Positions 5,973 to 64,000 of a stretch of DNA of 64,000 bases are shown in pieces. The DNA lies in the NCBI GenBank assembly GCA_031265995.1, contig JAISBW010000025.1, positions 9,264 to 73,263 of the forward strand, read 5' to 3'. The notes below the pieces were generated by a model, which was not told the origin of the DNA, made no database searches, and worked only from the letters and a program-made list of their open reading frames with translations. The position numbers and the translations under genes are program-made. Origin of the DNA: Oscillospiraceae bacterium. GTDB taxonomy: Bacteria > Bacillota > Clostridia > Oscillospirales > Acutalibacteraceae. Each line of letters starts with the position of its first letter. The stretch's first letter is position 1.

Positions 5973-5990
5973 CTAAATCACCTCTTTTTA

Positions 5991-8594: not shown

Positions 8595-8622
8595 AAATAA
8601 ATCCAAGCAAATACCATTTTAT

Positions 8623-9702: not shown

Positions 9703-9756
9703 AATCGCTCCATTTTTAAAATGCTTTTGGTAATTATATGTTTTTTTAAAAAAAAA

Positions 9757-10431: not shown

Positions 10432-10509
10432 AAATTTATTTTATAATATTTTTAATTAATAAGAACTCTAAACACCAAAAGAATTATTTTCAGAAATAGC
10501 TTTAAAAAA

Positions 10510-10690
10510 TAGATATGTCTTAGAACTGAAATTTTTTTGTCAATTTTACAAAATTCGGTTTAATGACATGTCTAATATTATGATACTTCTTTTTTAGATT
10601 ATTCTGCTTTAAAATTTGGTATCTAAAACCTGTTCTCATAGACTTGGAACATCAGTTTTAAAGAAAATTTTGAATAATTTTTGTTGGAAA
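10510..10690. repeat. Cluster of degenerate MITE fragments (B-like, A-like and family-C end)
   Basis: gacatgtctaatatta is B-terminus-like. aaacctgttctcatagacttggaacatcagttttaaagaaaattttgaataatttttgttgg is the family-C left arm. Confidence 0.6.
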
Positions 10691-10802
10691 TTGCATCGCG
10701 TTGTATTTTGTTTTATTTACATATATAATCAGATTGTGCCCAAATAATAAATATTTTTTTAAAAAATTAGAATCTAGAAAATTTTAAATTCAAGAGATTT
10801 AA

Positions 10803-46072: not shown

Positions 46073-46855
46073 ATGATGGAAAAATTTATTAATGTTTTGA
46101 TTTCCGAAGACAGCGAAATGTTTTTGAACAAGGCACCGAGGATTTTTGCCGATTATTCAATTAGTGTTAATTTTGCGCCAAAAGACGGCGTAAAAGTCAT
46201 AGAAGCAACAAAAACTCAGCGTCCGGATTTTGTCGTAACCGATCTTTTTATGCCAAGGACCGACGCTATAGGGGTTATATCTAAAATAAAAAAATGCGCC
46301 GACGTTTCACCAGAATTTATAATAACTTCAAGTTTTTTAAATCAAACGCTTGAACGAGAAGTTATGAGCGCAGGTGCTGCTTATTTTATGCTTAAACCGT
46401 TTGAAATTTGCGAACTCGCCGAAAGGATAATTAGAATTTCCGCGTTAAGTCAAAAAAAGATAGAATTACCCGATAATGATGGAAATGAGATGGAAATTAA
46501 AGTTACTGATATTTTGCACGAAATAGGCGTTCCTGCTCACATTAAAGGCTATCAGTATTTGCGAAGTTCCATCATGATTTCCATAAATAATCCTGATCTT
46601 ATAAATGCGGTTACAAAACAACTTTATCCCGCGGTTGCGAAAGGATATAAAACAACGTCTTCTCGTGTAGAAAGAGCTATGCGGCACGCGATTGAAGTCG
46701 CTTGGGATCGTGGAAATGTCGACGTTCTTAATTCGCATTTTGGTTATACGATACAAAACTCCAGAGGAAAACCTACAAATGCCGAATTTATAGCCATGAT
46801 CAGCGATAAATTAAGACTTCAGATAAAGGGTAAGAAAATGGTAATGTGCCGGTAG
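46073..46855 (+). CDS. spo0A: Sporulation master response regulator Spo0A
   Basis: Receiver domain (FVVTDLFMP, LKPF) plus the Spo0A-specific C-terminal domain: HEIGVPAHIKGYQYLR, TSSRVERAMRHAIEVAW, KPTNAEFIA. Confidence 0.9.
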   Translation: MMEKFINVLISEDSEMFLNKAPRIFADYSISVNFAPKDGVKVIEATKTQRPDFVVTDLFMPRTDAIGVISKIKKCADVSPEFIITSSFLNQTLEREVMSAGAAYFMLKPFEICELAERIIRISALSQKKIELPDNDGNEMEIKVTDILHEIGVPAHIKGYQYLRSSIMISINNPDLINAVTKQLYPAVAKGYKTTSSRVERAMRHAIEVAWDRGNVDVLNSHFGYTIQNSRGKPTNAEFIAMISDKLRLQIKGKKMVMCR

Positions 46856-46862: not shown

Positions 46863-47062
46863 GAATCTGTATTCAAAGAGGAAAAAAACACAATGAATAC
46901 TTTATGTATTCTGAGTATTTTTGACAAAATTTTGAAAAAAATTATTGAAAATTGGGTATTTTGATCCTTTTGAATACAGGTTCCAAAATTTAAAGCGCGA
47001 GGAAGGCGAATACTAGCGTATTTAACTAACGAGCAATGCAAAATTTTAAAATTTTAACTAAA
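46863..47062. repeat. Family-A MITE (121 bp, left-arm deletion) abutting an internal family-B fragment
   Basis: GAATCTGTATTCAAAGAGG...CCTTTTGAATACAGGTTC (46863-46983), then aaaatttaaagcgcgaggaaggcgaatactagcgtatttaactaacgagcaatgcaaaattttaaaattttaacta. Confidence 0.8.
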
Positions 47063-47070: not shown

Positions 47071-47934
47071 CTATTTGTTTTTAATTGAATTTAATGTGAT
47101 ATTCGTAAAAAAATTAATCGCAAAAACAAAAATTAGCAATATTAGCGCGTACAAAAAAGCAATCGCAACAGAATCGTCCGTATTTGCTTGTTTAACTGTC
47201 TGATAGAGATGTAGTGTTAAAGTTCTTCCGCTTGAAAACATGTGAGAAAAAAAATTTTTCGGCATTTTACACATCATTCCGGAAGTGTATATCAAGGCGG
47301 CGGATTCTCCGGCTATTTTCCCGATGCAGAGCATTATTCCAGTAAAAATCCCAGGTACGGCGCAAGGTATTGTAGCGCTTCTTAGGGTTTTAGCTCTCCC
47401 TGCGCCAAGAGAAAAAGAAGCCTCTTCATAGGTTAATGGAACAGAATTTATCGCCTCTTCTGAGGCTTTTATTATGGTCGGAAGTGTACATAAAACCATT
47501 GTGAGACAGCCTGCAATGATTGAAGTCCCCATTCCCAGTTTTATACAAAAAAAATCATATCCGAATAAACCTAATACCAATGATGGTAAACCAGAAAAAA
47601 TTTCAATCGTAAAATGCAATACACGTGAAAAAATTCCTTTTTTTGAATATTTCGAAAGCCAAATTGCTGTTCCGATCCCTATCGGAAGTACAAAAAAAAG
47701 CGCAAGAATGATGATATACAGTGTATTTATTATTGTAGCCAGCATATTTTTTCCATTGAGTATGTTTTTGTTTAAAAAATCCAAATTAACATACATGGCT
47801 GATTTTACTAAAATATAAACAACAACCGACAATAACACAAAAAATACGGCAAAAGCCGAAAAATAGGTTACTGACCTAAGAACAAAACTTATAAATTTTG
47901 TTTTTTTTATGTGTTTTTCGTTATTAAAAATCAA
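47071..47934 (-). CDS. pstA: Phosphate ABC transporter permease PstA (orphan)
   Basis: 6-TM ABC permease with EAA loop EEASFSLGAGRAKTLRSATIPCAVPGI and GESAALIYTSG (PstA-like GETAPL). No pstS, pstC or pstB is adjacent. Confidence 0.65.
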   Translation of the reverse strand: MIFNNEKHIKKTKFISFVLRSVTYFSAFAVFFVLLSVVVYILVKSAMYVNLDFLNKNILNGKNMLATIINTLYIIILALFFVLPIGIGTAIWLSKYSKKGIFSRVLHFTIEIFSGLPSLVLGLFGYDFFCIKLGMGTSIIAGCLTMVLCTLPTIIKASEEAINSVPLTYEEASFSLGAGRAKTLRSATIPCAVPGIFTGIMLCIGKIAGESAALIYTSGMMCKMPKNFFSHMFSSGRTLTLHLYQTVKQANTDDSVAIAFLYALILLIFVFAINFFTNITLNSIKNK

Positions 47935-48275: not shown

Positions 48276-48330
48276 TTAATCATAAGCTTTGCTGCATTGC
48301 TTAATTTTATTTTATAAAAAGGAGTTCGAT

Positions 48331-49020
48331 ATGAGTTTTTTTAAAAAAGCCTTTAGTTTGGCTTGTGTTTTAGCTTGTTTTTCAGGATTTATTTCAAATG
48401 GGGTTTCAGCAGGGAAAGTAGTTTATACGGCAGAAGCTAAAAGAGATCCAAAAGATGAATATAGACTATTGGTATCAGAAGATTCACTGGTTCCTGAGTC
48501 TAAACAAATTTTAAGACAATTTTTAGAATTGTTTCCATTAGTGCCACTGAATAAACCGGTGAGATCACCATTTGGTTTTGATAATGCTCCATTCTTTGAG
48601 GTCGGAAAAGTCATTGAAGGAATGGAAGGAAGAGAAGAGGTGGGTATTCCTTTAGTAAAAGATGGAAGCTTGGCTTTTGTTGTTTTCGAATCAATAGTAA
48701 GTCCACAGATGAAAAAAATCGTAGGGAGATGCCGCCCAACATTTAATCCTGATGGAACAATTAGTCTTAACCTCAATGGTCGCCCGTCTTCGTTTCCGGA
48801 TTCTGTTGTTTTAACCATTACAGAGCATACAGGTTTCAATCCAAAAAAACTTTTTCAAGAAATAAAAGAACGTGCAGAAAGTAGGCGTCATTTTCGAATC
48901 CAAACTGAGCGTGGGAGTCGAATTTATTTCCCTTGCGATGAACAGACAGAAAATGAGTATGATCGTTTGCTTCAACATCTCGGTGCTGCATTCTGCTTAC
49001 CATCAAGTGTTGAAGAATAA
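48331..49020 (+). CDS. Secreted/lipoprotein-like hypothetical protein, paralogue 1
   Basis: ATG 48331 is preceded by an AAGGAG SD (the track start at 48289 is upstream of the SD). Signal peptide MSFFKKAFSLACVLACFSGFISNGVSA. It shares SPFGF..GMEG..NGRP..FP blocks with the next gene. Confidence 0.65.
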   Translation: MSFFKKAFSLACVLACFSGFISNGVSAGKVVYTAEAKRDPKDEYRLLVSEDSLVPESKQILRQFLELFPLVPLNKPVRSPFGFDNAPFFEVGKVIEGMEGREEVGIPLVKDGSLAFVVFESIVSPQMKKIVGRCRPTFNPDGTISLNLNGRPSSFPDSVVLTITEHTGFNPKKLFQEIKERAESRRHFRIQTERGSRIYFPCDEQTENEYDRLLQHLGAAFCLPSSVEE

Positions 49021-49086
49021 TCGATAATAATTTAATTATAAGCTTTGCTGCATTGCTTAATTTTATTTTATAAAAGGAGTTTCGAT

Positions 49087-49896
49087 ATGAGTTTTTTAAA
49101 AAAAGCCTTTAGTTTGGCTTGTGTTTTGGCTTGTTTTTCAGGATTTATTTCAAATTGGGTTTCAGCGTTCGAGGTTTTTGAGGTAATTGCTAGAAGAAAT
49201 CCAAGTGATGAATACGAGCTATTGTATGATAAAGGAAGTTCTCCATCAAATTCTGAACTTAATGAAATTTTTGGACAGCTTACAACACTCTATTCGGGTA
49301 GAGGGTCGGGAGTGCAGAGTAAATCGCCATTTGGTTTTGTAAATAATGTTCCGTCTTGGTTTCCGTCTAGGGAACTCAGTAAAGTTATTACAGGAATGGA
49401 AGGATGCGAAGAGGATGGCTTTTTCCTTAGAAAAGAAAACGGAGATTTAATTTTTGTTACTTTTAGTACAACTCCGGAATCATTTGGTGTTTGCTGGGAT
49501 TTTGGTGGAAGTAAAAAACTTTTTTTAACTTTTACAGAAGAGGAAGCTACTGAAGGCAGAACTCTGTATGAACTTGGGGATTTAGCTTCAGGAACCCCTT
49601 GGAAAGATCCTAGCATTGATGCGGGAAGTGAAATTTTAGTCAAGTTAGAACCATTTATGAAAGAACCGAGTAAAAGTTGTCCAATAAGTTTTGATAGAGA
49701 TGTAATATTCAGACTTAATTATAACGGAAGACCGTATCTCTTTCCAAACGTTGTTAGGGTTTTCATAAAGGTGCATGAAATAACACAACCTCAAAAAGAA
49801 AATTTTATAGGAAGAATGAAAAAAGAAGTAATAGGAATACTTGGCTGGCCTGAATGGCTTAACTATCTTGTTAGTGGAGTTTTACCGACTCAATAA
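49087..49896 (+). CDS. Secreted/lipoprotein-like hypothetical protein, paralogue 2
   Basis: ATG 49087 with an AAGGAG SD. The signal peptide is almost identical to paralogue 1. The mature part is homologous but strongly diverged. Confidence 0.65.
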   Translation: MSFLKKAFSLACVLACFSGFISNWVSAFEVFEVIARRNPSDEYELLYDKGSSPSNSELNEIFGQLTTLYSGRGSGVQSKSPFGFVNNVPSWFPSRELSKVITGMEGCEEDGFFLRKENGDLIFVTFSTTPESFGVCWDFGGSKKLFLTFTEEEATEGRTLYELGDLASGTPWKDPSIDAGSEILVKLEPFMKEPSKSCPISFDRDVIFRLNYNGRPYLFPNVVRVFIKVHEITQPQKENFIGRMKKEVIGILGWPEWLNYLVSGVLPTQ

Positions 49897-49978
49897 TAAG
49901 AAGTGGTTTATTTTATAAACCGGCACAAACCCGTTCTCATAGGCTTGGAGTGCCATTGTCCACGAGGACGGGTTTTTG

Positions 49979-50279
49979 GAACCTGTATTCAAAAGGATCA
50001 AAATACCTAATTTTCAATAATGCTCAGAGCCTATCTAATATCTCTAAGTAGTGTAGATTTTATGATAAAATTTTTAAAATTTAAAGCGCGAAAAAGATAA
50101 ATACTGGCGTATTTAACTGACGAACAATGCAAAATTTTAAAATTTTAACTAAAATACGTGCTATTTCGGAGATATTAGGCAGGTTCTCAGAATACATAAA
50201 ATATTCATTGCGATTTTTTTATCATTACTGAAGAAAAATTCTTCAAAAATTTGGAATTTACCCTTTTAAATACGGGTTC
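49979..50279. mobile_element. Family-A MITE carrying a nested family-B MITE (50027-50186)
   Basis: GAACCTGTATTCAAAAGGATC...aataatgcTCA | GAGCCTATCTAATATCTC...GAGATATTAGGCAGGTTC | TCAgaatacataaa...CCCTTTTAAATACGGGTTC. TCA is duplicated at 50024-50026 and 50187-50189. Confidence 0.85.
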
Positions 50280-50367
50280 TAAGATAGTTTTAAGTTTAAA
50301 TTTTTAAAAAAGGATAAAATAATGAAAAAAAATTAAATTTTTATCTGGTGTTTTAAGTCCTATAATT

Positions 50368-51288
50368 ATGGGTAGTAATTTTTGTTGCTGCCAAAAGATA
50401 GAAACTAAAAAAACTTTTTCAAATAATGTAATATTTGTGCCAGATGAAAAAATAACTATTGATAGTCAAGCGTTAAGCGAAACTTTAGATACTCGGGCTA
50501 CTGTTTTTTTATCTAAGATACCTTTAATAGGGCATTTACTTGATTATTTTTTTAGTTCGCCAGAAAAAAACAGACTATGTTTCGTAAAACCTAATAAATA
50601 TTCTGATAATCCACTTGAATTTGAATTGTTTCCAGAAGGATCACCGAAACCAGAAGATGTGCTGCAAGGTCACTTAGGGCTGTGCTACTTTTTCGCAGTA
50701 CTGTCAACAGTCGCCGAAAGAGATCCAAATTTAATAAAAACTAACATGGTAGAAGATAACGAGGGAAACGTTTCAGTTAAATTTTTTGATCCGAGTGATG
50801 GCAACCCGTTTTACATTAAGGTACAAAAAACAGTACCTGAACTTCCTAAAAACTTTAAATTCGTTTATAATAATTGTCTTTGGGTTCAAATATATTTAAA
50901 AGCCTTTATAGCTTCGCAATTTTCAGGTTTGCAGGGTTATATATTAGATTTTAATTGTATAAATTATAAATATGCTGAAGGTGGACTTATGGATTTAGTT
51001 ATAAGAATGATAACAGGAAAAGAGACAGAAACATCTAATGCTTTAAGCGTGTGGCTTGCAAAAAAAAATGATCTATATTCAAAAATTGAAAAAACTTTAT
51101 CAGATTCTGGATACGTAACGTGTGATTTCGCATCTCATTTGAATGTGATAAAGCTTTTTTTGGGCGGAGTTTCCAACGAAGGGTTGGTTCGAGGTCATGC
51201 TTATTCCATAGAAAAGGTGTACAAAGATAAAAACGGTCAAAGATGGATAATTATAAGAAACCCATGGGGATATTTTTCCTCAACATAG
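50368..51288 (+). CDS. Calpain-type (peptidase C2-like) cysteine protease, C-terminally truncated
   Basis: QGHLGLCYFFAVLS (calpain QGxLGDCW Cys motif), RGHAYSI (His) and IIRNPWG (Asn). The N-terminus reads MGSNFCCCQK. The ORF stops 5 codons after RNPWG at the prophage boundary. Confidence 0.7.
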   Translation: MGSNFCCCQKIETKKTFSNNVIFVPDEKITIDSQALSETLDTRATVFLSKIPLIGHLLDYFFSSPEKNRLCFVKPNKYSDNPLEFELFPEGSPKPEDVLQGHLGLCYFFAVLSTVAERDPNLIKTNMVEDNEGNVSVKFFDPSDGNPFYIKVQKTVPELPKNFKFVYNNCLWVQIYLKAFIASQFSGLQGYILDFNCINYKYAEGGLMDLVIRMITGKETETSNALSVWLAKKNDLYSKIEKTLSDSGYVTCDFASHLNVIKLFLGGVSNEGLVRGHAYSIEKVYKDKNGQRWIIIRNPWGYFSST

Positions 51289-51468
51289 CATGAAAGGTTT
51301 ACACTTTTTTACACTCTTTCAAAAAAAGTTTTCAAAAGACAAACAGATAAAATGTATAAGTTTTGCTTTATACTTTATATTTATTTATATTTATTTTATT
51401 TTTAAACATTTCTTTATTTTGAATTTATTTAAGATTTATTTATTTTAAATATTTCAAAGTTAAATTTT

Positions 51469-53271
51469 CTATACCGCATACGTAATCCCGCTCCCTTCAA
51501 AAATAATGCCCTGCTGTAAAAGATAAATCGCGTTGATAAGTGCCGCGACCATATCGACTTTACCTGAACTCTTCTTTTTATGGATGTATCTATTCATATT
51601 TGTGTCGTAAACACACATGGCATTTGAAAAATTGATTTCAAGCAAAGTATTCTTTTCATATGAAAATTCTGTATTGATAATTTTTTCCTGCAAAAGTTTT
51701 GTCGGGGCATGGAGCGTATCGCTGTGCTGCCTAATCTCGACAACACTATATTTTGTCAGCCACTTTTGCGCAGAGCTAAGGCAGTTGTATCTATCAAAGC
51801 CGATTGCCCTGATTGTTACACCGAACCTATCTTCAAGTTTAAAGACAAAATCTTCAACAAAACCATAATCTATTGTCTTATTGCCGCAAGGATAACATTT
51901 TTTGTGTTTTATAAATCTTTTGTAATCAAGCTTTTCAAATTTGTTTTTCTCTTCGATTCTTCCTTCAGGAATAAAGCACCAAGCGTCTGCCAGAATATGG
52001 TTGTCTTCATCGACCGCGCACATCACAACGGCGGTATTGTCCGTCGTCATTGACAGATCAACTCCGACATAGACTTCTCTTCCTTTCCAATCGATTTTGT
52101 TAACTTTGCATCTTTTCACGTCCGAGATATCTATAAAGCTTTCAGTTCCGGCCCCTTGATAAATGATATTGCAGTGTTTAGTAAGGAAGTTTTCTCTTGC
52201 GGATTCCATCGCAATTGCTTTTGCTCTCTTTTTTAGAAGATCTTCCCAAATTTCTGGGATTTCAAGAGCGACCGGATTTGCGTGTTTAAGAATCAGATCA
52301 TCGGAGGTCCAGCTTTGAGAAGTCTGATTAGGTTCACTTTGATTTTGGGAATCTTTTATCTGAAACTTGTTGGATTTGTCGTAGAATTCCGATTCAATCG
52401 ATGTATTTACCGATGTATTTGATGCACTGAAGTCCGGCTCATAAAGAAGCGCAAAAAGAGTTTCGTCTTCTGTAATGCCATCTAAAACTTGTTTTGCATA
52501 TTTAATTTCTTCTTCAAACGGATTATCAATTGTCGGGTATTTTGTGCTGATTATGCATCCAAGCTTATTTAAAATATTAAGCTGACCGCTTCTCATTGAT
52601 TCAATTGCATACGCGTTCGGCAATGCTCCGACTTCATCTGCTAAAAAAACATTGGGGAGTTTGCCGTCCATTCTTGAATTAGAGTAATTAAGGGGAAAGT
52701 ACTGATTTTCATTAAGCTCGAATTTAATGTAATCTCGAAGAATTTTAAACCTTGGAGTTTCGTCCTTCATATACACTTTTGGGCTACTCTTTAAAATTTC
52801 TTCAATTGCGGTTTTTACTTCTCGACTTAAACTTCCATCTGGGGCCACAGAGTAGAACTTGGAGAACTTCGGTTCCAGCAAGAAAAGAAGGATAAAAGTA
52901 GTTGCAATTGTAAAAGTCTTAAAGTTCTTTCTTGCGATTTCAAGAATTGCGGTTTCATATCTTCTTCTGGTTGGGTTGTCTTTGTAAACTACGCAAAGAA
53001 TCGATGTATAAAACAGCCACTGATACCCGGTTGAGCAGTCATAAATTGTTTCGCCGGCCTTTAAGCCTCGAGGCATGATTAACAATTTTAGGGTGTTTTC
53101 TATGCGTTCGAGCATTTCTAAATTCACAAAATATTTTGTATTTTTGATATTTTTATCTTTGTTGTTTTCGCCATTTGAGATATCTAAAAACTTTTGACAT
53201 TGTAATTTTACATATTTTGGTGCATCTTCTGATTTGATTGCCCGATTTGCGTATTTTGAAGCTTTAATCAA
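51469..53271 (-). CDS. Phage terminase large subunit
   Basis: 600 aa with a Terminase_1-like layout: an N-terminal ATPase region and a C-terminal RNaseH-like nuclease (VGVDLSMTTDNTAVV, GFDRYN, KVDMVAAL). It follows a P27-type TerS. Confidence 0.8.
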   Translation of the reverse strand: MIKASKYANRAIKSEDAPKYVKLQCQKFLDISNGENNKDKNIKNTKYFVNLEMLERIENTLKLLIMPRGLKAGETIYDCSTGYQWLFYTSILCVVYKDNPTRRRYETAILEIARKNFKTFTIATTFILLFLLEPKFSKFYSVAPDGSLSREVKTAIEEILKSSPKVYMKDETPRFKILRDYIKFELNENQYFPLNYSNSRMDGKLPNVFLADEVGALPNAYAIESMRSGQLNILNKLGCIISTKYPTIDNPFEEEIKYAKQVLDGITEDETLFALLYEPDFSASNTSVNTSIESEFYDKSNKFQIKDSQNQSEPNQTSQSWTSDDLILKHANPVALEIPEIWEDLLKKRAKAIAMESARENFLTKHCNIIYQGAGTESFIDISDVKRCKVNKIDWKGREVYVGVDLSMTTDNTAVVMCAVDEDNHILADAWCFIPEGRIEEKNKFEKLDYKRFIKHKKCYPCGNKTIDYGFVEDFVFKLEDRFGVTIRAIGFDRYNCLSSAQKWLTKYSVVEIRQHSDTLHAPTKLLQEKIINTEFSYEKNTLLEINFSNAMCVYDTNMNRYIHKKKSSGKVDMVAALINAIYLLQQGIIFEGSGITYAV

Positions 53272-53307
53272 TTTGGTTCACCTCCCGTTAAAATTTTTAA
53301 ATATTTT

Positions 53308-53688
53308 TTAGTCAATCGAATTTCTTCTGCCGGAAATGAATTCAAGCAAAGGATCCGGTTCGTCACTGCCGCCTCTGGCTCTTAGCAAAGTTATGATTTT
53401 AACAAGCGTCGCCACGGTTTTATTCGCACAGTCCGCGGTTTTGTTGTAAGCGCTTACGGCAGGATGAACATAAGTATTTTTTGTTCCTTTGGAATAACTT
53501 TTCTCCACAGTCATTCCTTCTTCATAAATAGTCTTTTCAAGATCGGTAAGCATTTTGATTTGCACTTGATATCTTTTAAAAGTCGTCAAGAAGAAAAAGT
53601 TTGATTCGACGCCGTATTTTTCGGCAATTCGAAGAATTTCTTTTGCTTGCTCGTTTAAATTAAGATTCTGGTTCATAATTTCCTCCAA
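53308..53688 (-). CDS. Phage terminase small subunit (P27 family)
   Basis: 126 aa with a pattern typical of P27-family TerS (YVHPAVSAYNKTADCANK). Located immediately upstream of TerL. Confidence 0.65.
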   Translation of the reverse strand: MEEIMNQNLNLNEQAKEILRIAEKYGVESNFFFLTTFKRYQVQIKMLTDLEKTIYEEGMTVEKSYSKGTKNTYVHPAVSAYNKTADCANKTVATLVKIITLLRARGGSDEPDPLLEFISGRRNSID

Positions 53689-53690
53689 AT

Positions 53691-54943
53691 TTATGAAATT
53701 AATTCCGCTTTCTTATCGGTTAAATTTTCCCATCGTTTTATGATCACATCGCAGTATCGTGGGTCTAGTTCCATCATGAAACATTTTCTGTTTAGTTCTT
53801 CACAGGCAATTAAAGTTGTTCCGGAGCCGCCGAATAAATCTAGAACGATTTCTCCTTCTTTACTGCTGTTTTCAATTAGTTTTGCAATCATCGGAACCGG
53901 TTTCATTGTCGGATATTCATCATTTCTTAAAGGTCTGTTAAATTCTAAAATTGTAGTTTGCGTTCTGTCGTCAATAAAATAATGTGAATCTCCGGATTTC
54001 CAGCCGTAGACGCAAGGTTCGTGTTTCCACTGGTAGTCTTGGCGTCCAAGGACTAAAGCGTTTTTATTCCAGATAAGCTGTTGTTTGATTTCCCAATCTA
54101 TTTCCCGGCAAGCTTGATAAACGGATAATGATTCTTTATTTGCAAACCAGATGTAGAAAGCTCCGCCTTGTTTAAGATACTTATCAGCATTTTAAAAGCC
54201 AAAATCAAAAACGAGCGAAATTCTTCGCTCGTCTGTTTGTCATTTAAAATTTTATTCCTTTCTTTTGTTTTACCTTCGTATCCAATATTGTACGGCGGGT
54301 CTGTAACAAATAAATCAATTATTTCATTTACTTTATTTATTTTATTTCCTTTTAGCTCAGAATTAATTAGCTTAGAATTCATAAGTTTAGAGACGTCTTC
54401 AGGATTTGTCGAATCTCCGCACATCAGGCGATGCCGGCCAAGACTGTAAATTTCACCGAGCTTTGATTTCGGTTCTTCTTTTAAAATTTCATTGATTTTG
54501 TCTGAATCAAAATTATCATCTGTTATTTCTTTTGAATCATTCAAAACCAAATCAAAATTAAGATCATCAAACCCGGTTAGAGAAATATCAAAATCAAGAC
54601 TTTTTAAATCTTCAAGCTCAATCTTAAGAATATCAAAGTCCCATCCTGCATCTAAAGCCAATTTGTTGTCGGCAATTATGTAAGCTTTCTTTTGTGTTTC
54701 TGTCAGGTCCTCTACAAACAGGCATGGAACTTCTTCCATCCCAATTTGCTTTGCTGCTAAAACTCTGCAGTGGCCTGCGATTATTCCAAAATCTGCGTCA
54801 ATTAAGACTGGATTTACGAAACCGAATTCTTCTATTGATTTTGCAATCTTGGAAATCTGTTCTTCACTGTGAGTTCTGGCGTTATGTTCATATGGCTTTA
54901 ATTTTTCAATCGCGATATTTTGGTATTTTCTCATTTTTCTCAC
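53691..54943 (-). pseudogene. ParB-N-domain / beta-class DNA N6-adenine (DPPY) methyltransferase with one frameshift
   Basis: ORF 54098..54943 carries the ParB-like N-domain (GHCRVLAAKQIG) and motif IV DPPYN. The other frame continues NADKYLKQGGAFYIWFANKE...EYPTMKPVPMIAKLI..LDLFGGSGTT (motif I) to 53691. One extra base in the T4 run 54190-54193 (A4 on the coding strand) would fuse them. Confidence 0.7.
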
Positions 54944-55294
54944 CTCAAAAAAAATAGCCTCAAACTCAGCTACAATACTGGTTTAAAGCAAATTTCAAAA
55001 AATACATGAATTGTAAATCCGGTGTAAACGGAGGGCCAGCGTGGTGTTGATTTGTTTTATTTTTTGGTCTATCCGATACCCGGGGGATGCTCTTTACTCT
55101 TAAAAATAAATTTTTGTTTAAAAAATAAACGGTTGCTTGAAACATTTATTTAGATTAGATTTATTTTTGTGTTTAAAAACAAAAGCTTGTTTGAAATAGA
55201 TTTTACTTAGATTTTAATTTTTTAAACTTCTTAAGCATAATTTGCTACGATTTCTTTTTATCGGATCCATTTCCGTACTTTTCATTTCTTGTTC

Positions 55295-55534
55295 CTAAAT
55301 TTTTTTAATCATTTCTTGCTCATTAATAATTGCTTTAATAATTTCAAGCTTGATCTTTCCATCGTCTGCTTGATCATGATGCTTCTTGCATAGTGTGACA
55401 AGGTTGTTTGGTTTAAACGCAAGCTCTTTGCCCTCATCAATCTTGATTGCGTGATGGACTTCAATATCGCTGCAGTTGTACACGCCTTGACGCAAACAAA
55501 CTTGGCACAAATACATATCTCGTTTTCGAATCAT
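55295..55534 (-). CDS. Phage HNH endonuclease (true start probably further upstream)
   Basis: CQVC...EVHH...N..TLCKKHH is an HNH core. The frame stays open upstream to 55696 and encodes a Cys-rich KSCKHCSRIH..ICP segment, but with no ATG, GTG or TTG. An ATT at 55658-55660 lies 9 nt after a GAAGGAG SD. Confidence 0.65.
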   Translation of the reverse strand: MIRKRDMYLCQVCLRQGVYNCSDIEVHHAIKIDEGKELAFKPNNLVTLCKKHHDQADDGKIKLEIIKAIINEQEMIKKI

Positions 55535-55750
55535 TTCACGGGTTTTGCCCCATTTATACGTGCTTCTCAGGGCGAATTGTTCGGTTTTGTTTTTTGGTCT
55601 TTTAGGGCAAATGTAGTCTTCTTTGTGGATTCGAGAGCAATGTTTACAGGATTTTAGAATTAGGTTCAGCTCCTTCTTCAGACGTAAAAAGCCGCCTCAA
55701 TCGAAGCGGTGATTAAAACTTGTCGGCAAATAAGATTTTCTTTTTGTGGG

Positions 55751-55782
55751 AAAATAAAAGTCCTGCAAAATTTATTGCAGGA
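55751..55782 (-). terminator. Rho-independent terminator between the late-regulator gene and the HNH/packaging genes
   Basis: 8-bp stem tcctgcaa/ttgcagga (55761-55782) with a 6-nt loop. On the minus strand it is followed by CTTTTATTTT. Confidence 0.55.
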
Positions 55783-55893
55783 TTTATTAAAAAATTAAGG
55801 AGTTGATTAAAGCTTTCGTAAACCCTGTGGATGAATTTATAAAAGCTTTCAATTTACACTATAACACAGCTAAACCGAACAAAACGAACAACT

Positions 55894-56289
55894 TTAATTT
55901 CTGCTCAAAAAACGATTATGAATCATTCTTACAGTGTCTTCAGTATTTCTCCCGCCAACCGAAAAAGCTACTTTTCTCCAGCTCATACCGCCAATATACC
56001 GAAGCGAAAGAATTTGCCTGACGAGACTGTCGTCTACTGAATTGATATATCTGTTTATACGGTTAAATTCAAAGAAGCACTTTTTTATATTCAAATCGAT
56101 CAGACTTTTAAGATCCGCAATTTCTGCCGCATATTCCGATATTTTATCTCTAAATCCAGGGATTCTGGGCATTCCGGTAATAAACCGAGAACAGGAAGTC
56201 GCTAAATTTTCAAATTCCTCAAGCTGTTTTGTTTGCATCTCTATTTCTTTCTTAAGCCAATAAACCTGGGAAAGTTCTTTCTTAGTCAC
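55894..56289 (-). CDS. Phage sigma-70 region-4-like late transcriptional regulator (DUF1492/ArpU-like)
   Basis: 131 aa. Coiled N-terminus, then a C-terminal HTH segment (LVRQILSLRYIGGMSWRKVAFSVG) typical of phage sigma-like regulators located before packaging genes. Confidence 0.55.
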   Translation of the reverse strand: MTKKELSQVYWLKKEIEMQTKQLEEFENLATSCSRFITGMPRIPGFRDKISEYAAEIADLKSLIDLNIKKCFFEFNRINRYINSVDDSLVRQILSLRYIGGMSWRKVAFSVGGRNTEDTVRMIHNRFLSRN

Positions 56290-56455
56290 AGATTTTGTCC
56301 TCCGAAAAAGGTTCTCTGATTGTCGGAGGTTGACTTTTGTTGGCCTTGTTTTTCTAAGATTGACTTTAATTGTATTTAGTTTACTTTTATTTTACTTTTA
56401 ATTTTTTTAACTATTTTAACTATTTTTAGTTTACAAAACTATTTTACTAATTCTT

Positions 56456-57946
56456 TTAAGAAATTCTAGCCTTAACAGCTTCAATTAAATCATTTTGGAC
56501 CTTATCTTTCTTCTTTAAAGCCCTCATAACATCCTCATCAATCGTATCCTGGGAAATTATGTGATGAATCACGACTGTATCTTTTTGTCCTTGTCTCCAG
56601 AGCCTGGCATTAGTTTGTTGGTAGAGCTCCAAACTCCAGGTAAGACCAAATCAGACTAAAGACGAGCCGCCTTCTTGAAGATTAAGACCATGGCCCGCGG
56701 AGGCAGGATGAATTAAGGCTACTGGCAGTTCTCTTTTATTCCAGAGATTAATGCTTTGTGGACTGTCAAGTTTTAAGAATTTAATTTTAAGATCGATCAA
56801 ACGTTTTTTAATTCTTTCAAAGTCGTGTTTAAACCAGTATGCAATTAAAACAGGCTTGCCGTTTGCAGATTCAATTAAGTCCTCGAGAGCGTCAAGTTTT
56901 CTGTCGTGAATTAAGATAATTTCCTTTTTGTTTTCTATTTTTATTTCTTCATTTTCTTTAATTTTCTCATCTTCTTTAATTTTTCTTTCTTTTTCTTCTT
57001 CTCCTTTAGCTTCCTTGTCATTTTCTAAAACATTACCATAAACAGCACCATTTGCCATTTGAAGGAGTTTATTCGAAAGTGCCGCAGCATTGACTGCGTC
57101 AATTTCTTTATATTTGATTTCATTGCCGTCATCATTATCACCATTGTCTTTAATAGAAACAATTAAATCTCTTTTCAGTTTTTGATAAATATTCATTTCA
57201 CTTTCTGAAAGTCTAACTTTAACTTCATTATAAATAACTTCAGGAAGATTTAAAAAATCTGTATTTTTCATACTGATTGTGATATCAGATATTTTCTCAT
57301 AAATCTTTTCTTCAGCCCCAACAATGGGTTTGTATGTGAAAACCTGCATCCAGTTCCTTTCATCGGGAACAAAATAATCATTTCTAAAGTGGGTTATATA
57401 TCTTCCAAGCCTTTCGCCCCAATCCAGGATCCCGATCTCGGCCCATAAATCCATAAGACCATTTGAAGATGGAGTTCCGGTTAACCCCACAATTCTCTTT
57501 ATTTTTGGTCTTATCTTTTTTAAAGCCTTAAACTTTAGAGTTCTATGATTTTTAAAAGAACTAAGCTCATCAATGACAATCATATCAAAGTCAAATTTAA
57601 ATCCGCTTCTGTGAACAAGCCATTCCACATTCTCGCGGTTTATTATGCAGATCTGAACTCTTTTATTTAAAGCCGTTTTGCGCTCTTTTTCATTCCCTAC
57701 GGCTACTGAATACCATAAACCCTTCAGATGCTCCCATTTCTCAATTTCAGAAGGCCAGGTGTTTTTTGCTACCCTCAAAGGTGCAATAACTAAAACTTTT
57801 CTTATCCGGAAACTGTCAAGGAGCAAATCATAGAGCGCCGTTAAGGTAATTACGCTTTTTCCAAGACCGCATTCAAGAAAAAGAGCCGAGATTGGATTTT
57901 CAATTATGAATTCAGTTGAATACTTTTGGTATTTGTGAAGTTTTAT
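56456..57946 (-). pseudogene. SNF2-family helicase with an in-frame TGA and no canonical start codon
   Basis: Helicase motif I (LECGLGKS) lies upstream of the track start, in a frame open to 57970 that has only ATA (57944-57946) after a GAAGGTGGG SD. TGA at 56651-56653 sits where SNF2 proteins have Trp (..GGSSLV*FGLTWSLELYQQTNARLWRQGQ..). The frame continues to TAA at 56456. Confidence 0.75.
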
Positions 57947-58126
57947 TTTTTGCCCACCTTCTTGACTTAATTAGAAAAATTAATTGCAATCAACCGTTAT
58001 TTCTTAATTAATTATTATTAACTTAATCACACATTAGCATTAATTATAATTAATTATCAGCTAATAATAATTTAGTTCTTTTAAAACTAGTTTAAATTCT
58101 CTGATATTGTCTTAAACTTTCCGATA

Positions 58127-58405
58127 TCATTTCAATTCCTGTCTCGTTATCATTTCAATCTCTGTCTCACTGTTTATTACAAAGACTTTAAACCCAAGAT
58201 TCTCCAGCTGTTGTTTTCTCCTTACCTGAATCGGTCTCATCTTTCCTTCTGGAGATTTTAGTTCCGCAAAGACACTTCTTCCTCCGGGAAAAAGAATTAT
58301 TCTGTCGGGTGCGCCTACAAATCCGGGGGAAATAAATTTAAGAGCAAGACCTCCGAAATTTCTAATTGCTTTGATTAGTTTTTGTTCTATTTTCTTTTCT
58401 GTCAT
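58127..58405 (-). CDS. VRR-NUC domain nuclease
   Basis: 92 aa. GAPDRIILFPGGRSVFAELK matches the VRR-NUC (PD-(D/E)xK) core pattern. This is the typical position between primase and SNF2. Confidence 0.75.
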   Translation of the reverse strand: MTEKKIEQKLIKAIRNFGGLALKFISPGFVGAPDRIILFPGGRSVFAELKSPEGKMRPIQVRRKQQLENLGFKVFVINSETEIEMITRQELK

Positions 58406-58446
58406 GCCAATTTCTCACTTATAAATTAATTTCCCTCGCCAAAAAT

Positions 58447-58646
58447 AGTAGTTGGCCAGTATTTTTGAGATTGATGATCAGTCCGAAGCCGCGTAAAACC
58501 TGGATTTAAGAAAAAATTACTGGCCAACTGGCCAACTGGCCACGTTTTCTATATAAACCTCTACGAGCTATATTACTGTGTACCCCTATATAACTCCTAT
58601 TCCCCTATATATATACATACACATTTATATAGATATAGTTGGCCAG
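58447..58646. promoter_or_regulatory. Cluster of five TGGCCA palindromes plus CCCCTATATA repeats (candidate phage origin or operator)
   Basis: TGGCCA occurs at 58452, 58520, 58528, 58536 and 58639. The middle three form an 8-bp tandem, ctggccaa x3. The 11-bp tagttggccag occurs at both edges. Between them is cccctatataactcctattcccctatatatatacataca. Confidence 0.5.
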
Positions 58647-58657
58647 ATGGCATGAAT

Positions 58658-61387
58658 TCAGTTATACTCTATGTTTGCTTCCCTGGCCATCTTTTTTTCG
58701 CCAGAGTTTTCAGAGTTGGCAAGGTTTTTAGAAACTCTAATCCATGCCGGAGTGTTCCCATAAAGTTTAAACCACTGCTTTTTCTTCGATTTAACCCATC
58801 CTCCGATTTTTTCCATAATTAACGTAACCGTATATGAAAATTTCCGCCCAAAATCCTCACGTCTATTTTCAAAACACTCACACCATATCTCCATGTTACA
58901 GACGAATTGTCTTTGAACTGTTCCGACCTCATCGCTTCTGAGGAACTGTTGTCTTTGGAAAGTATCCAAATCATTCCAGTTTTCAGGCAGAAGTCTTTCC
59001 AGATATTCTCTGATAAATCCTTCGCGTTCGTCTGATTCAAGAGCGTCCTTTTGAGCGCTTTCAGCCATTTGCTCTAAACTTGAATCCAAAAACAGTCTTT
59101 CACCTTTATTCCAAATCTCCTTTGCCTCGGCCCAGATTTGCGGAATATCACTATCAGAAATGTCCCAGCCTCTCTTTTCACATGCGCCTGTTACTGCTAC
59201 TGGCCAGAATCTCCTGTTTCCGGTCACATCCTGCAGAAATCCTAAACTTTCGCTATTTGTAGAGCCTACAATTATGCACTGTCTTGGATGGCTTTCTGTA
59301 ACCCTTCCGTAACAAGCTCTGTAATTGTCGTCTCTGCATGAAAGAAAAGCCTTAACATTGTTAACATCCGTTCTTCTTATACCGGCAAGTTCCGGAATTT
59401 CAATAATCCAAAAGCCTTGTATCTTTTCAGGAGCTTCTTTTCCTTTTGCCATATCAGAAAAACTGAGACTATCTGAAAACCATTTTCCGGCAAGTTTACC
59501 GAAGAATGCCGATTTCCCAAGGCCAGTCATGCCGTTAAGAACGAGCATGTAATCGAATTTAATCCCCGGACTATAAATCCTTGCAATGGCCGCAGCTAGA
59601 GTCTTTCTTGTCACCGCCTTTACATAAGCATTATCTTCGGCTCCGAAATATTCGATTAGAAGTGTTTCTACTCTCTTGTTCCCATCCCACACCGGAAGGC
59701 TTTCAAGATAATTCTTAATTGGATGAAAAACTCTTTTTGAGGCAGCGGCTATAACGGCATGATTTGATTTATTTGGGGAATAAAGTCTATAGCTGTGCTG
59801 TAAATATTCATAAAGCTTAACGCTGTCAGTCTCGTTCCATCCCGGTTTTATTCTTTGCCAAGGGACTTTTCCTCTGACGTCGACTCCGTCTCTCATTTGA
59901 TTAAAAGCTATATTTTTAAGATTCGGGTCATTATTTAAAATCAGAAGATAATTCCCAAAAGTTTCTTTGATATGGCCGGTTTTGTCGAGTTCGAGGAGTT
60001 TTTTCCAGGAATTGTCTTTAGGTCCGTTAGTTACTTCGTTTTTATCAGTTTCTAAATTAATGATTTCTGAGTTGTTTTGATTGTTTGAATTAAAAATGTA
60101 GCCAAAATCATCACCAAAATCTTCCTTAGCTTTATCATTGCAATTTTTTAAAAGTTCTTCTTTTACTTTCTCATTTTGAACCGCAAACCCGTACATTTTA
60201 TTAAAAGATATTTTATCTTTAAATTCCCCAAATCTATGAATTCTTACCAAATCAAAAGAATTAAGAAGCTTGCCGTGTGCCGGATCTGTGGCGTGATGAG
60301 AGTAGGCAAATTTATCGTCATAGACTACCAGACCTGAGGAACATTCGCCCGGAGTATAGGTGTATCTTTCAGGGTTTAAACCGCAAATTCCGTTAGATTC
60401 ACTGTTCCAAGTTCCATTTGTGCTTGGCTCATAAACATCCGAGAGAAAGTTCTCAATTGCTTCATGGATATTAAAAGATCTGCAGAATGCTCCGACCACT
60501 CCTTCTTTCAAAAGAGGGTCGGCTTGTTTTCTTCCTATTTCTCTCTTAATTATTTCGGATTGCCTCTTTGATGTAGGCCACAAAGAGCAGTCACGCCAAT
60601 CTCCGTTAGTTTTACTATTACTTCTGTTATCAATTCCGCCATTATCCCCACCAAGTTTTCGCAGATATAAATCAGCACTAATTTCCTTTCCTTCAAAAAC
60701 TTTAAATATGTATCTACCGTCAAACGAAGTGGAAGGCCAATACATAAGTCTGCTTGGTTCATACGTGCTGTCGTCAAAGCAGTCTATGCCGATTTCATTT
60801 GCCAGAATCCTTGAAACCGGAGTGTATTCCTCTGGAGTAAGTCTTCTGTCTGTAAAAACGATGAGCCTATACCTTGGATTTTCATTTGTGTGGCTGTGGG
60901 TTGAATAGAGAACGGCATCGTAATCAAAATCAGTCTCAAGCCTTTTTAAGAAATCAGGATCTGGGAAATCAGCGTCAAGCGTAATTGCGCTTCGGCAGTG
61001 GATTGTGTTATTTCTTCGGACTCCGTTTTTAAGATGACCAAGAACAAAGCCTCCGACATCTTTAATAGCGTCTTTTTTGGATTTGCTCATCTTTTGATAT
61101 TCAGATACTGATTCCGGAGTTCTTTTTGTAACTTTTAATATTTCAATAAATTCAAGCTTGGTAAATTCTTTATTTATCCATTTCTTCTCAAAACGGCTTC
61201 TGCCAATTGATATTTTAAGTTTTCTTTCCGGTATAGCCTTTACAGTTTTTATAACTTCTATAGTTTTTATAGTTTCTATAACTTTTGATTTGTTATTTGG
61301 TTTGTTATCCAATTCTGTAACTTGTGCTTTGTTACTTAAATTTATAACTTTTGTTTCAATGCTCAATTTGTTATCCAATTTAATCAC
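58658..61387 (-). CDS. Phage primase/helicase (VirE / P4-D5-type, N-terminal primase-polymerase-like domain)
   Basis: 909 aa. N-terminal half with ITLDADF..YSTHSHT (primase-like acidic/His motifs). C-terminal VirE-type P-loop LNGMTGLGKS and Walker B FWIIEIPE. Confidence 0.75.
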   Translation of the reverse strand: MIKLDNKLSIETKVINLSNKAQVTELDNKPNNKSKVIETIKTIEVIKTVKAIPERKLKISIGRSRFEKKWINKEFTKLEFIEILKVTKRTPESVSEYQKMSKSKKDAIKDVGGFVLGHLKNGVRRNNTIHCRSAITLDADFPDPDFLKRLETDFDYDAVLYSTHSHTNENPRYRLIVFTDRRLTPEEYTPVSRILANEIGIDCFDDSTYEPSRLMYWPSTSFDGRYIFKVFEGKEISADLYLRKLGGDNGGIDNRSNSKTNGDWRDCSLWPTSKRQSEIIKREIGRKQADPLLKEGVVGAFCRSFNIHEAIENFLSDVYEPSTNGTWNSESNGICGLNPERYTYTPGECSSGLVVYDDKFAYSHHATDPAHGKLLNSFDLVRIHRFGEFKDKISFNKMYGFAVQNEKVKEELLKNCNDKAKEDFGDDFGYIFNSNNQNNSEIINLETDKNEVTNGPKDNSWKKLLELDKTGHIKETFGNYLLILNNDPNLKNIAFNQMRDGVDVRGKVPWQRIKPGWNETDSVKLYEYLQHSYRLYSPNKSNHAVIAAASKRVFHPIKNYLESLPVWDGNKRVETLLIEYFGAEDNAYVKAVTRKTLAAAIARIYSPGIKFDYMLVLNGMTGLGKSAFFGKLAGKWFSDSLSFSDMAKGKEAPEKIQGFWIIEIPELAGIRRTDVNNVKAFLSCRDDNYRACYGRVTESHPRQCIIVGSTNSESLGFLQDVTGNRRFWPVAVTGACEKRGWDISDSDIPQIWAEAKEIWNKGERLFLDSSLEQMAESAQKDALESDEREGFIREYLERLLPENWNDLDTFQRQQFLRSDEVGTVQRQFVCNMEIWCECFENRREDFGRKFSYTVTLIMEKIGGWVKSKKKQWFKLYGNTPAWIRVSKNLANSENSGEKKMAREANIEYN

Positions 61388-61406
61388 TCTCCAAATTTAA
61401 TAATCC

Positions 61407-63656: not shown

Positions 63657-63853
63657 AATTTCTTATCTTTCTCCTTAATTTTTAATTTTGATTGACATCG
63701 TTTTTCTTTAGTTTTCTTTAGATTGGCTTAATTTGGCGTTGTTTTTCTCTGGTTTTCTTTGTTTGACTTATTTGACTTTGATTAACTTAATTCGGCTATG
63801 CCTTTCTTTGGTTTTCATTGATTGTCTTTTATGGGCTTAATTTGTCTTAATTT

Positions 63854-64000
63854 CTATAAAATATCCTCATCGCTAACACTAAACCCATCATCAAAATCTT
63901 CCTCAGGATTTGGCTTTCCTCCCAAAGGTTCTCCGTCTCTGACCTTTTGAATATTTTGAAGACCGCAGGCAACGCCTTTATTCCCGTTAACATTAAAGGC
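63854..64000 (-). CDS. DUF2815-like phage protein, C-terminal part only (gene continues beyond the window)
   Basis: The minus-strand frame reads ..AFNVNGNKGVACGLQNIQKVRDGEPLGGKPNPEEDFDDGFSVSDEDIL with TAG at 63854-63856. The NGNKG(I/V)A.GL..(I/V)Q pattern and the position upstream of PolA fit the DUF2800/DUF2815/PolA module. Confidence 0.45.
   Translation of the reverse strand, partial: AFNVNGNKGVACGLQNIQKVRDGEPLGGKPNPEEDFDDGFSVSDEDIL

Follow-up and report, generated by a model that had tools for sequence, protein, structure and literature searches.

A probable pseudogene of a predicted exported calpain-like protease beside a truncated phage block in an Oscillospiraceae genome

The open reading frame (ORF) at 50368–51288 on the plus strand of the window (the whole 64,000-nucleotide stretch analysed here, part of an 84,587-nt contig) is probably the remnant of a gene whose product was a Sec-exported calpain-like cysteine protease (MEROPS/Pfam family C2), now a pseudogene carrying two or three lesions. 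The ancestral gene would have started at ATG 50322 behind an AAGGA sequence. Its product would have comprised a signal peptide (MKKIKFLSGVLSPIIMGSNFCCC...), then a short linker and a two-lobed calpain core; about 85–120 further codons would have followed, for the remaining four beta-strands and two helices of subdomain PC2 and for a C-terminal helix. One proposed lesion is an extra A in an A7 run, with which the true frame would halt after four codons; another is the loss of everything 3' of approximately 51295; and a possible third is a nonsense conversion of TAT to TAG at 51286, immediately 5' of the breakpoint. The finding is an ordinary one, a copy, now in decay, of a rare gene for a secreted calpain-like protease, and its main value is as a correction: the annotated product, recorded as a 306-aa "hypothetical protein" (NCBI MDR1240721.1, LBK29_02455), is the salvage of a broken gene.

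As annotated, the ORF has the N-terminus MGSNFCCCQK and passes from the tail of a signal peptide (MGSNFCCC) through a linker and calpain subdomain PC1 into an incomplete PC2. A preliminary description had assigned it to the calpains on the strength of all three catalytic motifs, and this assignment is well supported. The Pfam profile PF00648 (Peptidase_C2) matches the ORF at profile positions 25–244 of 297 with an E-value of 3.2e-16 and a score of 59.7 bits, well over the curated cut-off of 23.8 bits, and phmmer aligns Cys106 (codon 50683–50685, within QGHLGLCYFF), His277 (codon 51196–51198, within RGHAYSI), and Asn298 (codon 51259–51261, within RNPWG) with Cys115, His272, and Asn296 of calpain-1. 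The triad is invariant or nearly so across our alignment of homologues (A1). The AF2 model of the ORF (pLDDT 83) has the calpain-core fold; its top 29 Foldseek matches in the PDB are all calpain protease cores, each at probability 1.0, with 7w7o the best (E 6.8e-10). By alignment and predicted structure, then, the ORF is a peptidase C2 homologue with an intact triad. No Pfam domain other than PF00648, and no penta-EF-hand or CIII/C2-like domain, was found in the ORF or in six homologues.

The protease resembles the eukaryotic core (PC1–PC2 of CAPN1/2/3/9; 7w7o, 1tl9, 6bkj) in fold, with a Foldseek probability of 1.0, in the alignment of all three catalytic motifs, and, in the family at large, in retaining the terminal strand-helix-strand segment ..G.F.M.F.DF....L.I... 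It differs in having only about 20% sequence identity, in showing no detected accessory domains, and in its likely location, the Clostridia family being predicted to be exported whereas eukaryotic calpains are cytosolic; the window copy, moreover, ends 5 residues past RNPWG with its PC2 lobe incomplete. Bacterial calpain homologues of MEROPS family C2 are known, for example Tpr of Porphyromonas gingivalis, and their rare and patchy occurrence suggests horizontal transfer (Rawlings 2015, PMC4631099). With these the present family shares a core that has the Cys/His/Asn triad but lacks EF-hand and CIII domains, a predicted signal peptide and/or membrane segment, and a rare, patchy distribution. 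Unlike them, the window copy has a frameshift within its signal-peptide region and is missing the last part of the core together with the C-terminal tail; the Clostridia/Oscillospiraceae clade of metagenome-assembled genomes (MAGs) to which it belongs is not treated in that survey.

This clade is small and uncharacterised, and is found in uncultured gut-type Clostridia/Oscillospiraceae MAGs. Only about 13 clusters at 50% identity were found in 1.84 billion representatives, and a scan of GTDB representatives gave three relatives, the present MAG not being among the genomes recovered. The 13 homologues compared (355–491 aa) all carry a Sec-type signal peptide, as judged from composition and alignment, and the family would accordingly be Sec-exported by way of its N-terminus. 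In some members (P0010–P0012) the C-terminal helix is hydrophobic, which suggests a membrane anchor. Neighbouring genes differ at every homologue locus, so that there is no conserved synteny from which to predict a downstream gene, and one homologue lies inside a serine-recombinase insert that splits feoB. The orthologue of P0010 at locus L033 is frameshifted twice, and in P0011 a Gly replaces the catalytic Cys; decay therefore recurs in the family. A minor gain of this work is that it outlines this very small clade of calpain-like proteases with signal peptides; that the clade is patchy, with at least one member on an integrative element and several inactivated, fits the view that bacterial calpain genes are dispensable and pass sporadically between genomes.

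The 5' lesion lies at the start of the gene. Direct reading confirms what had been described there: an ATG at 50322–50324 preceded by a Shine-Dalgarno-like AAGGA (50310–50314, with a 7-nt spacer) is one base out of frame with the ORF across an A8 homopolymer (50325–50332), ATG 50368 has no Shine-Dalgarno-like sequence before it, and changing A8 to A7 restores the frame, which then reads MKKIKFLSGVLSPIIMGSNFCCC... from ATG 50322. At present that ATG opens only the mini-ORF MKKN*, with its stop at 50334–50336, 32 nt short of ATG 50368. Behind the tract, and 5' of the annotated start, the putative signal-peptide remnant KKIKFLSGVLSPII (50326–50367) is still open and in frame, and the tblastn alignments of homologues P0002, P0004, P0006, P0009, and P0012 begin at 50338–50341, right behind A8 and in the frame of the ORF. 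The A7 repair product MKKIKFLSGVLSPIIMGSNF... aligns with the signal peptides of the homologues; its n-region is MKKIK and its h-region, FLSGVLSPIIMG, has a Kyte-Doolittle value of 1.79, compared with 2.06–3.13 in all 13 homologues, each with a K/R-rich n-region and a hydrophobic h-region at its N-terminus, and with 0.67 in the ORF as annotated. In the model of homologue P0003 an N-terminal helix (residues 3–23) is followed by a disordered linker; residues 1–18 of the window ORF are disordered in its AF2 model. These comparisons place the ancestral start at ATG 50322 and mark A8 as a probable one-base insertion into A7, a +1 frameshift at signal-peptide codon 4. Ribosomal +1 frameshifting of the prfB type was considered and rejected, the codon before the TAA being AAT, which allows no re-pairing in the +1 frame.

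The preliminary description had also read the MGxxxCCC start as a eukaryotic-style signal for myristoylation and palmitoylation. In permissive form, the PROSITE-type myristoylation pattern requires a G, a next residue that is neither charged nor aromatic, and a small residue at position 5; G-S-N-F-C-C fits it on our own reading, and Cys residues follow. On that interpretation the locus would encode a leaderless 306-aa MGSNFCCC protease that is delivered to a eukaryotic cell, where it becomes N-myristoylated and palmitoylated, in the manner of the effector proteases YopT and AvrPphB, in which processing exposes an N-terminal Gly that is myristoylated and nearby Cys residues are palmitoylated in the host cell. 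The likeness, in that a cysteine protease of the papain-like clan has a Gly after Met1 and then a Cys cluster, is superficial: here the motif would arise by a mis-start inside a signal peptide, it is neither conserved nor preceded by a ribosome-binding site, and neither a delivery system nor a eukaryotic-cell context accompanies it. A signal peptide is present in all 13 homologues and an N-terminal MG in none; opposite the Met of MG, P0002 (..AIVMSN..) and P0004 (..TLFMSN..) have a Met inside their signal peptides, and the Cys cluster corresponds to a semi-conserved feature just past the signal peptide. In 11 of the 13 homologues a Cys falls within about 10 residues of the h-region, by manual reading of alignment A1; read in the same way for a lipobox, only P0009 (LTSC) fits, the window sequence being S-N-F-C. 

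The lipidation reading fails because the ancestral start is the upstream ATG and MG is internal to the signal peptide, the very circumstance in which, as the preliminary description itself had said, the motif would be buried. Against it stand also the position of ATG 50368 beyond the mini-ORF stop and without a Shine-Dalgarno sequence, the disordered remnant formed by residues 1–18 ahead of an incomplete protease core, a host that has Spo0A and is therefore one of the endospore-former-type Clostridia, and the lack of any secretion-injection machinery seen within the window. We consider it scarcely credible. The MG...CCC stretch is better explained, from the alignment, as the c-region and mature N-terminus of a signal peptide, and the 306-aa "protein" as a gene-caller's salvage from an internal signal-peptide Met; it should not be read as eukaryote-style lipidation in a gut Firmicute.

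A homopolymer of this kind could also act as a switch, slippage of A8, by phase variation or by RNA polymerase, giving A7 or A10 and hence a secreted, C-terminally shortened protease in some cells or transcripts. The tract occupies codons 2–4, right behind a good Shine-Dalgarno sequence, either the loss of one A or the gain of two restores the frame, the remainder of the 306 codons is still open, and rescue of interrupted bacterial genes by poly-A slippage is documented (PMC4256274; reviewed in PMC5009743). In Citrobacter rodentium tssM1 an A11 run produces frameshifts at 20–25% (PMC4256274); there as here an A run parts two frames of one gene that the loss or gain of A rejoins. The present tract, however, is A8, shorter than the A11 of that documented rescue, the frame downstream of it is itself truncated, and it is not conserved in the homologues readable at that position: in both homologous genes read there (L003 and L033) the A runs are shorter and interrupted. 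With 43 A/T runs of at least 8 in the 64-kb window, A8 is statistically unremarkable and no specialised feature, and no heterogeneity is seen between the two assemblies compared. A contig of a separate Logan assembly (L001, from SRR14710922) carries the identical A8; the length of the tract is thus known from assemblies, and the Logan contig may share reads with the MAG. Both assemblies show A8, and even in the ON frame the product would be without about 47 PC2 core residues and the ORF would not be intact. We therefore regard a switch as distinctly unlikely, and as slimmer still the chance that a working one controls an exported protease with a folded, active shortened core, a stochastic "mini-calpain". 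A weaker variant would have reinitiation at ATG 50368 produce a Cys-rich fragment that stays in the cytosol and takes on a new role. The tract may nevertheless slip in replication or transcription, and some full-frame product may exist from what we take to be a pseudogene.

The second lesion of the proposed pseudogene is the loss of its 3' end. The ORF stops 5 codons after RNPWG, at a TAG (51286–51288), and the observation that calpain cores run on beyond this point holds for every relative: none ends at the same residue, and 53–143 residues follow NPW in the homologues as against 6 in the ORF. The first 47 or so of these extra residues complete the calpain core fold. In the family profile this segment (..dGysvlkfedFlsqcgriefs) aligns with calpain-1 up to residue 326; in a full-length model it forms strands at 328–330, 336–338, 348–352, and 360–370 and helices at 342–345 and 353–359, with block-mean pLDDT of 82–92. 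With the segment included, 309 columns align to 7w7o instead of 252, TMt reaches 0.64 instead of 0.52, and E improves from 6.8e-10 to 1.3e-16. Among the top-scoring subfamily matches listed from the search of 1.84 billion representatives none ends naturally at RNPWG, and the eleven full-length-looking ones (347–493 aa) among the matches listed all reach at least profile position 348 of 384. Pfam coverage was tried as a proof of truncation and discarded, the full-length homologues too ending at about 245 of 297, except P0014 (295 of 297). Judged from the family alignment, the profile-to-PDB alignment, and the models, the 3' truncation is real and the PC2 lobe incomplete. The complete two-lobed core (PC1 and the whole of PC2) that an active enzyme needs is absent from the ORF, and we infer that no active enzyme is made from the locus. 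Both the triad and the run of 306 in-frame codons survive; either decay set in recently, then, or the fragment may still have a function.

At the DNA level, homologous genes are about 0.7 identical to the window copy as far as 51294; from 51295 the value falls to about 0.4, the AT-rich background. The breakpoint would thus lie in a zone at 51289–51297, beyond which the last 53–143 codons are missing. The TAG stands opposite a Tyr codon (TAT) in 12 of the 13 homologues and is possibly a nonsense lesion, or merely the edge of the breakpoint; the similarity behind the former reading spans 9 nt only, with 7 of the 9 matching homologous locus L002. A 33-nt pattern just 5' of the stop gave no matches in a metagenome scan.

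The preliminary description placed the truncation at a prophage junction. It is correct that phage DNA is the next recognisable feature on the 3' side, but phage-type sequence does not begin at the end of the ORF: the stop codon of terL, a complete phage terminase large-subunit gene on the minus strand (51469–53271), is separated from it by 180 nt, of which 51298–51468 is a low-complexity spacer of 15% GC. BLAST of these 180 nt against the window and all compared loci, including calpain genes and related phages, gave no meaningful match. On the other side, a composite MITE-like repeat of host type (49978–50284) lies directly upstream of the gene, with terminal inverted repeats AGAACCTGTATTCAAAAGG and CCTTTTAAATACGGGTTCT and split by a second repeat of about 145 nt at 50022–50165. 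Its left end occurs in 11 copies between 19283 and 50007 and in none in 51469–64000, and the 5' flank of the gene is therefore host DNA.

The phage-derived block, with terL as the last phage gene before the junction, continues on the minus strand to the end of the window (53308–64000), with terS, a ParB-DNA methyltransferase gene, an HNH-like ORF, a regulator, and genes for an SNF2 helicase, a VapE primase-helicase, and a family A DNA polymerase. Searches for exact matches to the proteins of the polA and TerL ORFs and to P0160 and P0280 found none. The block is itself decaying, the methyltransferase gene being broken by a frameshift at about 54173–54182 and the helicase gene having its C-terminal motif out of frame below 56651. 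A temperate phage might have entered the protease gene and left the 3' part intact beyond its far end: the first recognisable feature past the truncated ORF is phage genes, and the window stops short of the block's far end. However, in phages with a 67% identical TerL the portal gene follows 11 nt after terL, and then protease and capsid genes. The junction is not an att-site end, because this arrangement leaves no room for an attP; no integrase lies nearby, the window contains no homologue of the portal, protease, or capsid gene, and tblastn, which covered the 64 kb of the window (a fragment elsewhere being possible), found no displaced 3' calpain fragment of the kind proposed in the preliminary description. 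Disruption by integration is accordingly very unlikely. The block ends abnormally after terL, and the junction is best read, from its gene content, as a scar of deletion or rearrangement (or a mis-join) and not as an integration site. As the loss of the 3' coding sequence coincides with this abnormal end of a decaying prophage, the most economical history would be one event, a deletion or rearrangement, in which the end of the protease gene was lost along with the prophage's late half.

If the locus were an artefact of assembly, the gene would be intact in the organism: A8 would be a miscalled homopolymer, and the contig would be a chimera in which host DNA is wrongly joined to one of two closely related phage genomes. 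A second TerL, 94% identical, is encoded on a 40,101-nt contig of the MAG (the contig carrying MDR1240283.1), a repeat of the type that tangles assembly graphs, and the join lies within the 15% GC low-complexity sequence. The Logan contig, the sole record retrieved by exact match to protein P0001, is 1,109 nt long and base-for-base identical over 50238–51346; it ends inside the spacer short of terL, so that the join across 51347–51468 is seen in one assembly only. This same contig nevertheless spans both A8 and the loss of homology at about 51295, and a mis-join at or beyond 51347 would not bring back the missing 3' coding sequence. The window's other A8–A10 runs inside long ORFs are in frame, among them an A9 within the protease ORF itself (51060–51068); homopolymers are therefore generally called correctly. 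We consider an artefact unlikely.

Minor observations concern the surroundings of the gene. We found nothing relevant in the literature on SRR14710922, LBK29_02455, or MDR1240721.1. A search of the whole window against Rfam returned a tRNA-Gln only, and between 49850 and 51600 promoter-like sites were not more numerous than expected from shuffled sequence. The sole terminator-like hairpin in that interval lies upstream of the gene, at 49956–49971.

The protease ORF (50368–51288, plus strand) encodes 306 amino acids, beginning MGSNFCCCQK, with catalytic Cys106 (codon 50683–50685) in QGHLGLCYFF, His277 (51196–51198) in RGHAYSI, and Asn298 (51259–51261) in RNPWG; a TAG stop (51286–51288) follows five codons past RNPWG. 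The coordinates in the preliminary description for the ORF, motifs, stop, Shine-Dalgarno sequence, and A8 tract were rechecked on the sequence and are all correct. Its assignment to peptidase family C2 (calpain) is borne out by a Pfam Peptidase_C2 match (E = 3.2e-16, 59.7 bits, cut-off 23.8), by phmmer alignment of the three motifs with calpain-1 Cys115, His272, and Asn296 among PDB sequences, and by an AlphaFold2 model (14 sequences used; pLDDT 83, pTM 0.84), for which the top 29 PDB matches are all calpain protease cores (best 7w7o, E = 6.8e-10). NCBI lists an identical protein under accession MDR1240721.1 ([quoted passage not shown]), encoded by a contig of 84,587 nt; a Spo0A gene at 46073–46855 is consistent with a Clostridia host. 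We compared the ORF with 13 homologues (38–68% identity, 355–491 amino acids), each of which comes from a metagenome assembly or a MAG of uncultured Clostridia/Eubacteriales.

Truncation at the 3′ end, as first suspected, is real, and what is gone is part of the catalytic-domain fold, beyond a mere tail. Six residues follow NPW in the ORF, compared with 53–143 in the homologues, and DNA identity to the homologous genes, about 0.7 through 51294, drops to background (about 0.4) from 51295. The post-RNPWG segment of the family profile (..dGysvlkfedFlsqcgriefs) aligns to the final part of the calpain-1 core, up to residue 326, and in the predicted structure of P0003, a full-length homologue, this segment (residues 328–370) forms four strands and two helices with block-mean pLDDT of 82–92. 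With the segment, the match to 7w7o covers 309 aligned columns (TMt 0.64, E = 1.3e-16), versus 252 (TMt 0.52, E = 6.8e-10) without it. When 1.84 billion representative proteins were searched with the profile, about 13 clusters fell within this clade; all 11 full-length-looking matches (347–493 amino acids) extend to at least position 348 of the 384 in the profile, and no relative among the matches listed ends at RNPWG. Pfam coverage was dropped as evidence of truncation, as the profile alignment ends near 245 in most full-length homologues too. The TAG stop aligns with a Tyr codon kept in 12 of the 13 homologues (TAG CAT GAA versus TAT GAT GAA) and may be a separate nonsense mutation, the similarity of nine bases being too short to prove it. 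A tblastn search with the homologues found no 3′ calpain fragment elsewhere in the 64-kb window.

The N-terminus is damaged as well. A Shine-Dalgarno-like AAGGA (50310–50314, plus strand) precedes ATG 50322, which is directly followed by the A8 run (50325–50332, plus strand); as the sequence stands, this start reads MKKN*, and removal of one A gives MKKIKFLSGVLSPIIMGSNFCCC..., joining the main frame. All 13 homologues open with an n-region rich in K/R, then a hydrophobic stretch of 12 residues (Kyte-Doolittle mean 2.06–3.13), and these N-termini are predicted Sec-type signal peptides; in the P0003 model the N-terminus is a helix (residues 3–23) followed by a disordered linker. In tblastn against the window, the signal peptides align upstream of ATG 50368 in the ORF frame, from 50338–50341, just 3′ of the A8 run. 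Because they match this in-frame upstream sequence, ATG 50322 is taken as the ancestral start, and A8 as A7 plus one inserted base. The Met of "MG" aligns with an internal Met in two homologues, P0002 (..AIVMSNSICC..) and P0004 (..TLFMSNGLYC..), and at least one Cys lies within about 10 residues past the h-region in 11 of the 13, so that the CCC cluster reads as something the family shares, in the c-region of the signal peptide or at the mature N-terminus; a canonical lipobox occurs in P0009 (LTSC) only. The suggestion that the MG..CCC start directs myristoylation and palmitoylation fails on its own terms, the real start being the upstream ATG and none of the 13 homologues beginning with MG.

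The ancestral product was, on this reading, an exported calpain-like cysteine protease that began with a signal peptide and had a helix at its C-terminus; a strongly hydrophobic C-terminal tail in homologues P0010–P0012 (Kyte-Doolittle 2.0–2.4) points to membrane anchoring in part of the clade. The locus as it now stands combines a frameshift at codon 4 with the missing end of subdomain PC2, and translation from ATG 50322 stops after MKKN. ATG 50368, 32 nt downstream of that stop, has no Shine-Dalgarno sequence, making efficient reinitiation unlikely, and whatever protein was made would lack a leader and have an incomplete structure. We consider the locus quite likely to be a pseudogene. Slippage on the A8 run could bring the frame back at a low level; documented rescue uses longer runs, such as the A11 run in Citrobacter tssM1 (PMC4256274), and a protein rescued in this way would remain truncated. 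The finding matters because it puts right an annotation that misleads.

Runs of at least eight A or T number 43 in the window, so A8 is not unusual in this 30–38% GC genome. An A9 run at 51060–51068 within the ORF (..AKKND..) is in frame, which shows that the gene tolerates a long A run at another site and that such a run was assembled correctly there. A 1,109-nt Logan contig, separately assembled from run SRR14710922 and perhaps on reads shared with the MAG, matches window 50238–51346 without difference and spans both the A8 run and the breakpoint.

Phage genes do lie beyond the truncated ORF, as the term "prophage junction" implied, but the block ends abnormally and the term fits only loosely. 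They occupy the minus strand from 51469 through the window end (64000), in the order terL (complete), terS, ParB-DNA methyltransferase, HNH-like ORF, regulator, SNF2 helicase, VapE primase-helicase, and family A DNA polymerase. Among IMG/VR relatives whose TerL is 67% identical, the portal gene begins 11 nt past terL, and genes for a head protease and capsid come next; all of these are absent from the window, and DNA similarity to the relatives stops within terL. The methyltransferase gene (53691–54943, minus strand) is split by a frameshift at about 54173–54182, a site without a long homopolymer. The SNF2-type helicase (56290–57826, minus strand) is probably another broken gene, judging from an ORF end at 56651 and a conserved C-terminal motif (..ARLWRQGQKDTVVIHHII..) that runs on in another frame. 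The missing portal and capsid genes and the frameshifts indicate a decaying remnant, and a junction that is not an att site. In the simplest history, a single deletion or rearrangement would account for the loss of the late phage genes together with the protease 3′ end. The 180-nt spacer (15% GC) has no meaningful BLAST match in the window or the compared loci. The Logan contig ends within it, leaving the link from 51347 to terL to the MAG contig alone. A second TerL in the MAG (MDR1240283.1, P0160), 94% identical to that of the window, lies on a 40,101-nt contig; the MAG appears to hold two closely related prophages, or the bin two phage variants. Such paired copies are a possible substrate for recombination or mis-assembly, and a mis-join at 51347–51468 is possible, although it would not bring back the lost protease coding sequence.

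Bacterial calpain homologues, as surveyed by Rawlings, are rare and patchily distributed, lack EF-hand domains, have signal peptides or transmembrane regions in some cases, and were probably spread by horizontal transfer (PMC4631099). The present clade matches that description, and the window copy is a degraded member. P0003, the closest homologue with usable context, lies in the 4153–10722 region of locus L002, where an approximately 4.4-kb insert also holds a large serine recombinase, a 50-amino-acid ORF, and RadC. This insert divides feoB into an N-terminal and a C-terminal half and is thus a small integrative element with the protease as cargo. No conserved gene neighbourhood was found across the homologue loci compared. 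The P0010 orthologue in another MAG (locus L033, 9860–11055) carries two compensating frameshifts, of which one falls within the signal-peptide region and the other in a G-run where the catalytic Cys is encoded. In P0011, Gly replaces that Cys. Loss of activity, as read from these sequences, recurs in the clade.

The host part of the window contains a MITE-like intergenic element of about 190 nt, bounded by terminal inverted repeats of 19 nt (AGAACCTGTATTCAAAAGG ... CCTTTTGAATACAGGTTCT), spread over 19283–50284 and having no Rfam match. Its left end occurs 11 times there (19283, 24333, 24686, 27005, 32389, 32698, 35096, 42155, 46955, 48146, and 49978), versus none expected by chance, and is absent from the phage block. 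A second repeat of about 145 nt (..AAATTTAAAGCGCGA..AATACTGGCGTATTTAACT..AATGCAAAATTTTAAAATTTTAACTAAA) is found at 50022–50165, at 46974–47062, and beside the 24333 copy. At 50022–50165 it is nested in the MITE-like copy that directly precedes the protease gene, and this composite, ending 38 nt before ATG 50322, may supply or disrupt the protease promoter. Two tandem paralogous genes (48289–49020 and 49045–49896, plus strand), with signal-peptide-like N-termini (MSF[FL]KKAFSLACVLACFSGFISN..) and no Pfam or NCBIfam family, are 94% identical over their first 140 nt, upstream sequence included. A lone ABC-transporter permease gene (BPD_transp_1; 47071–47934, minus strand), by spo0A and without partner genes alongside, lies between two MITE copies, which hints at local rearrangement.
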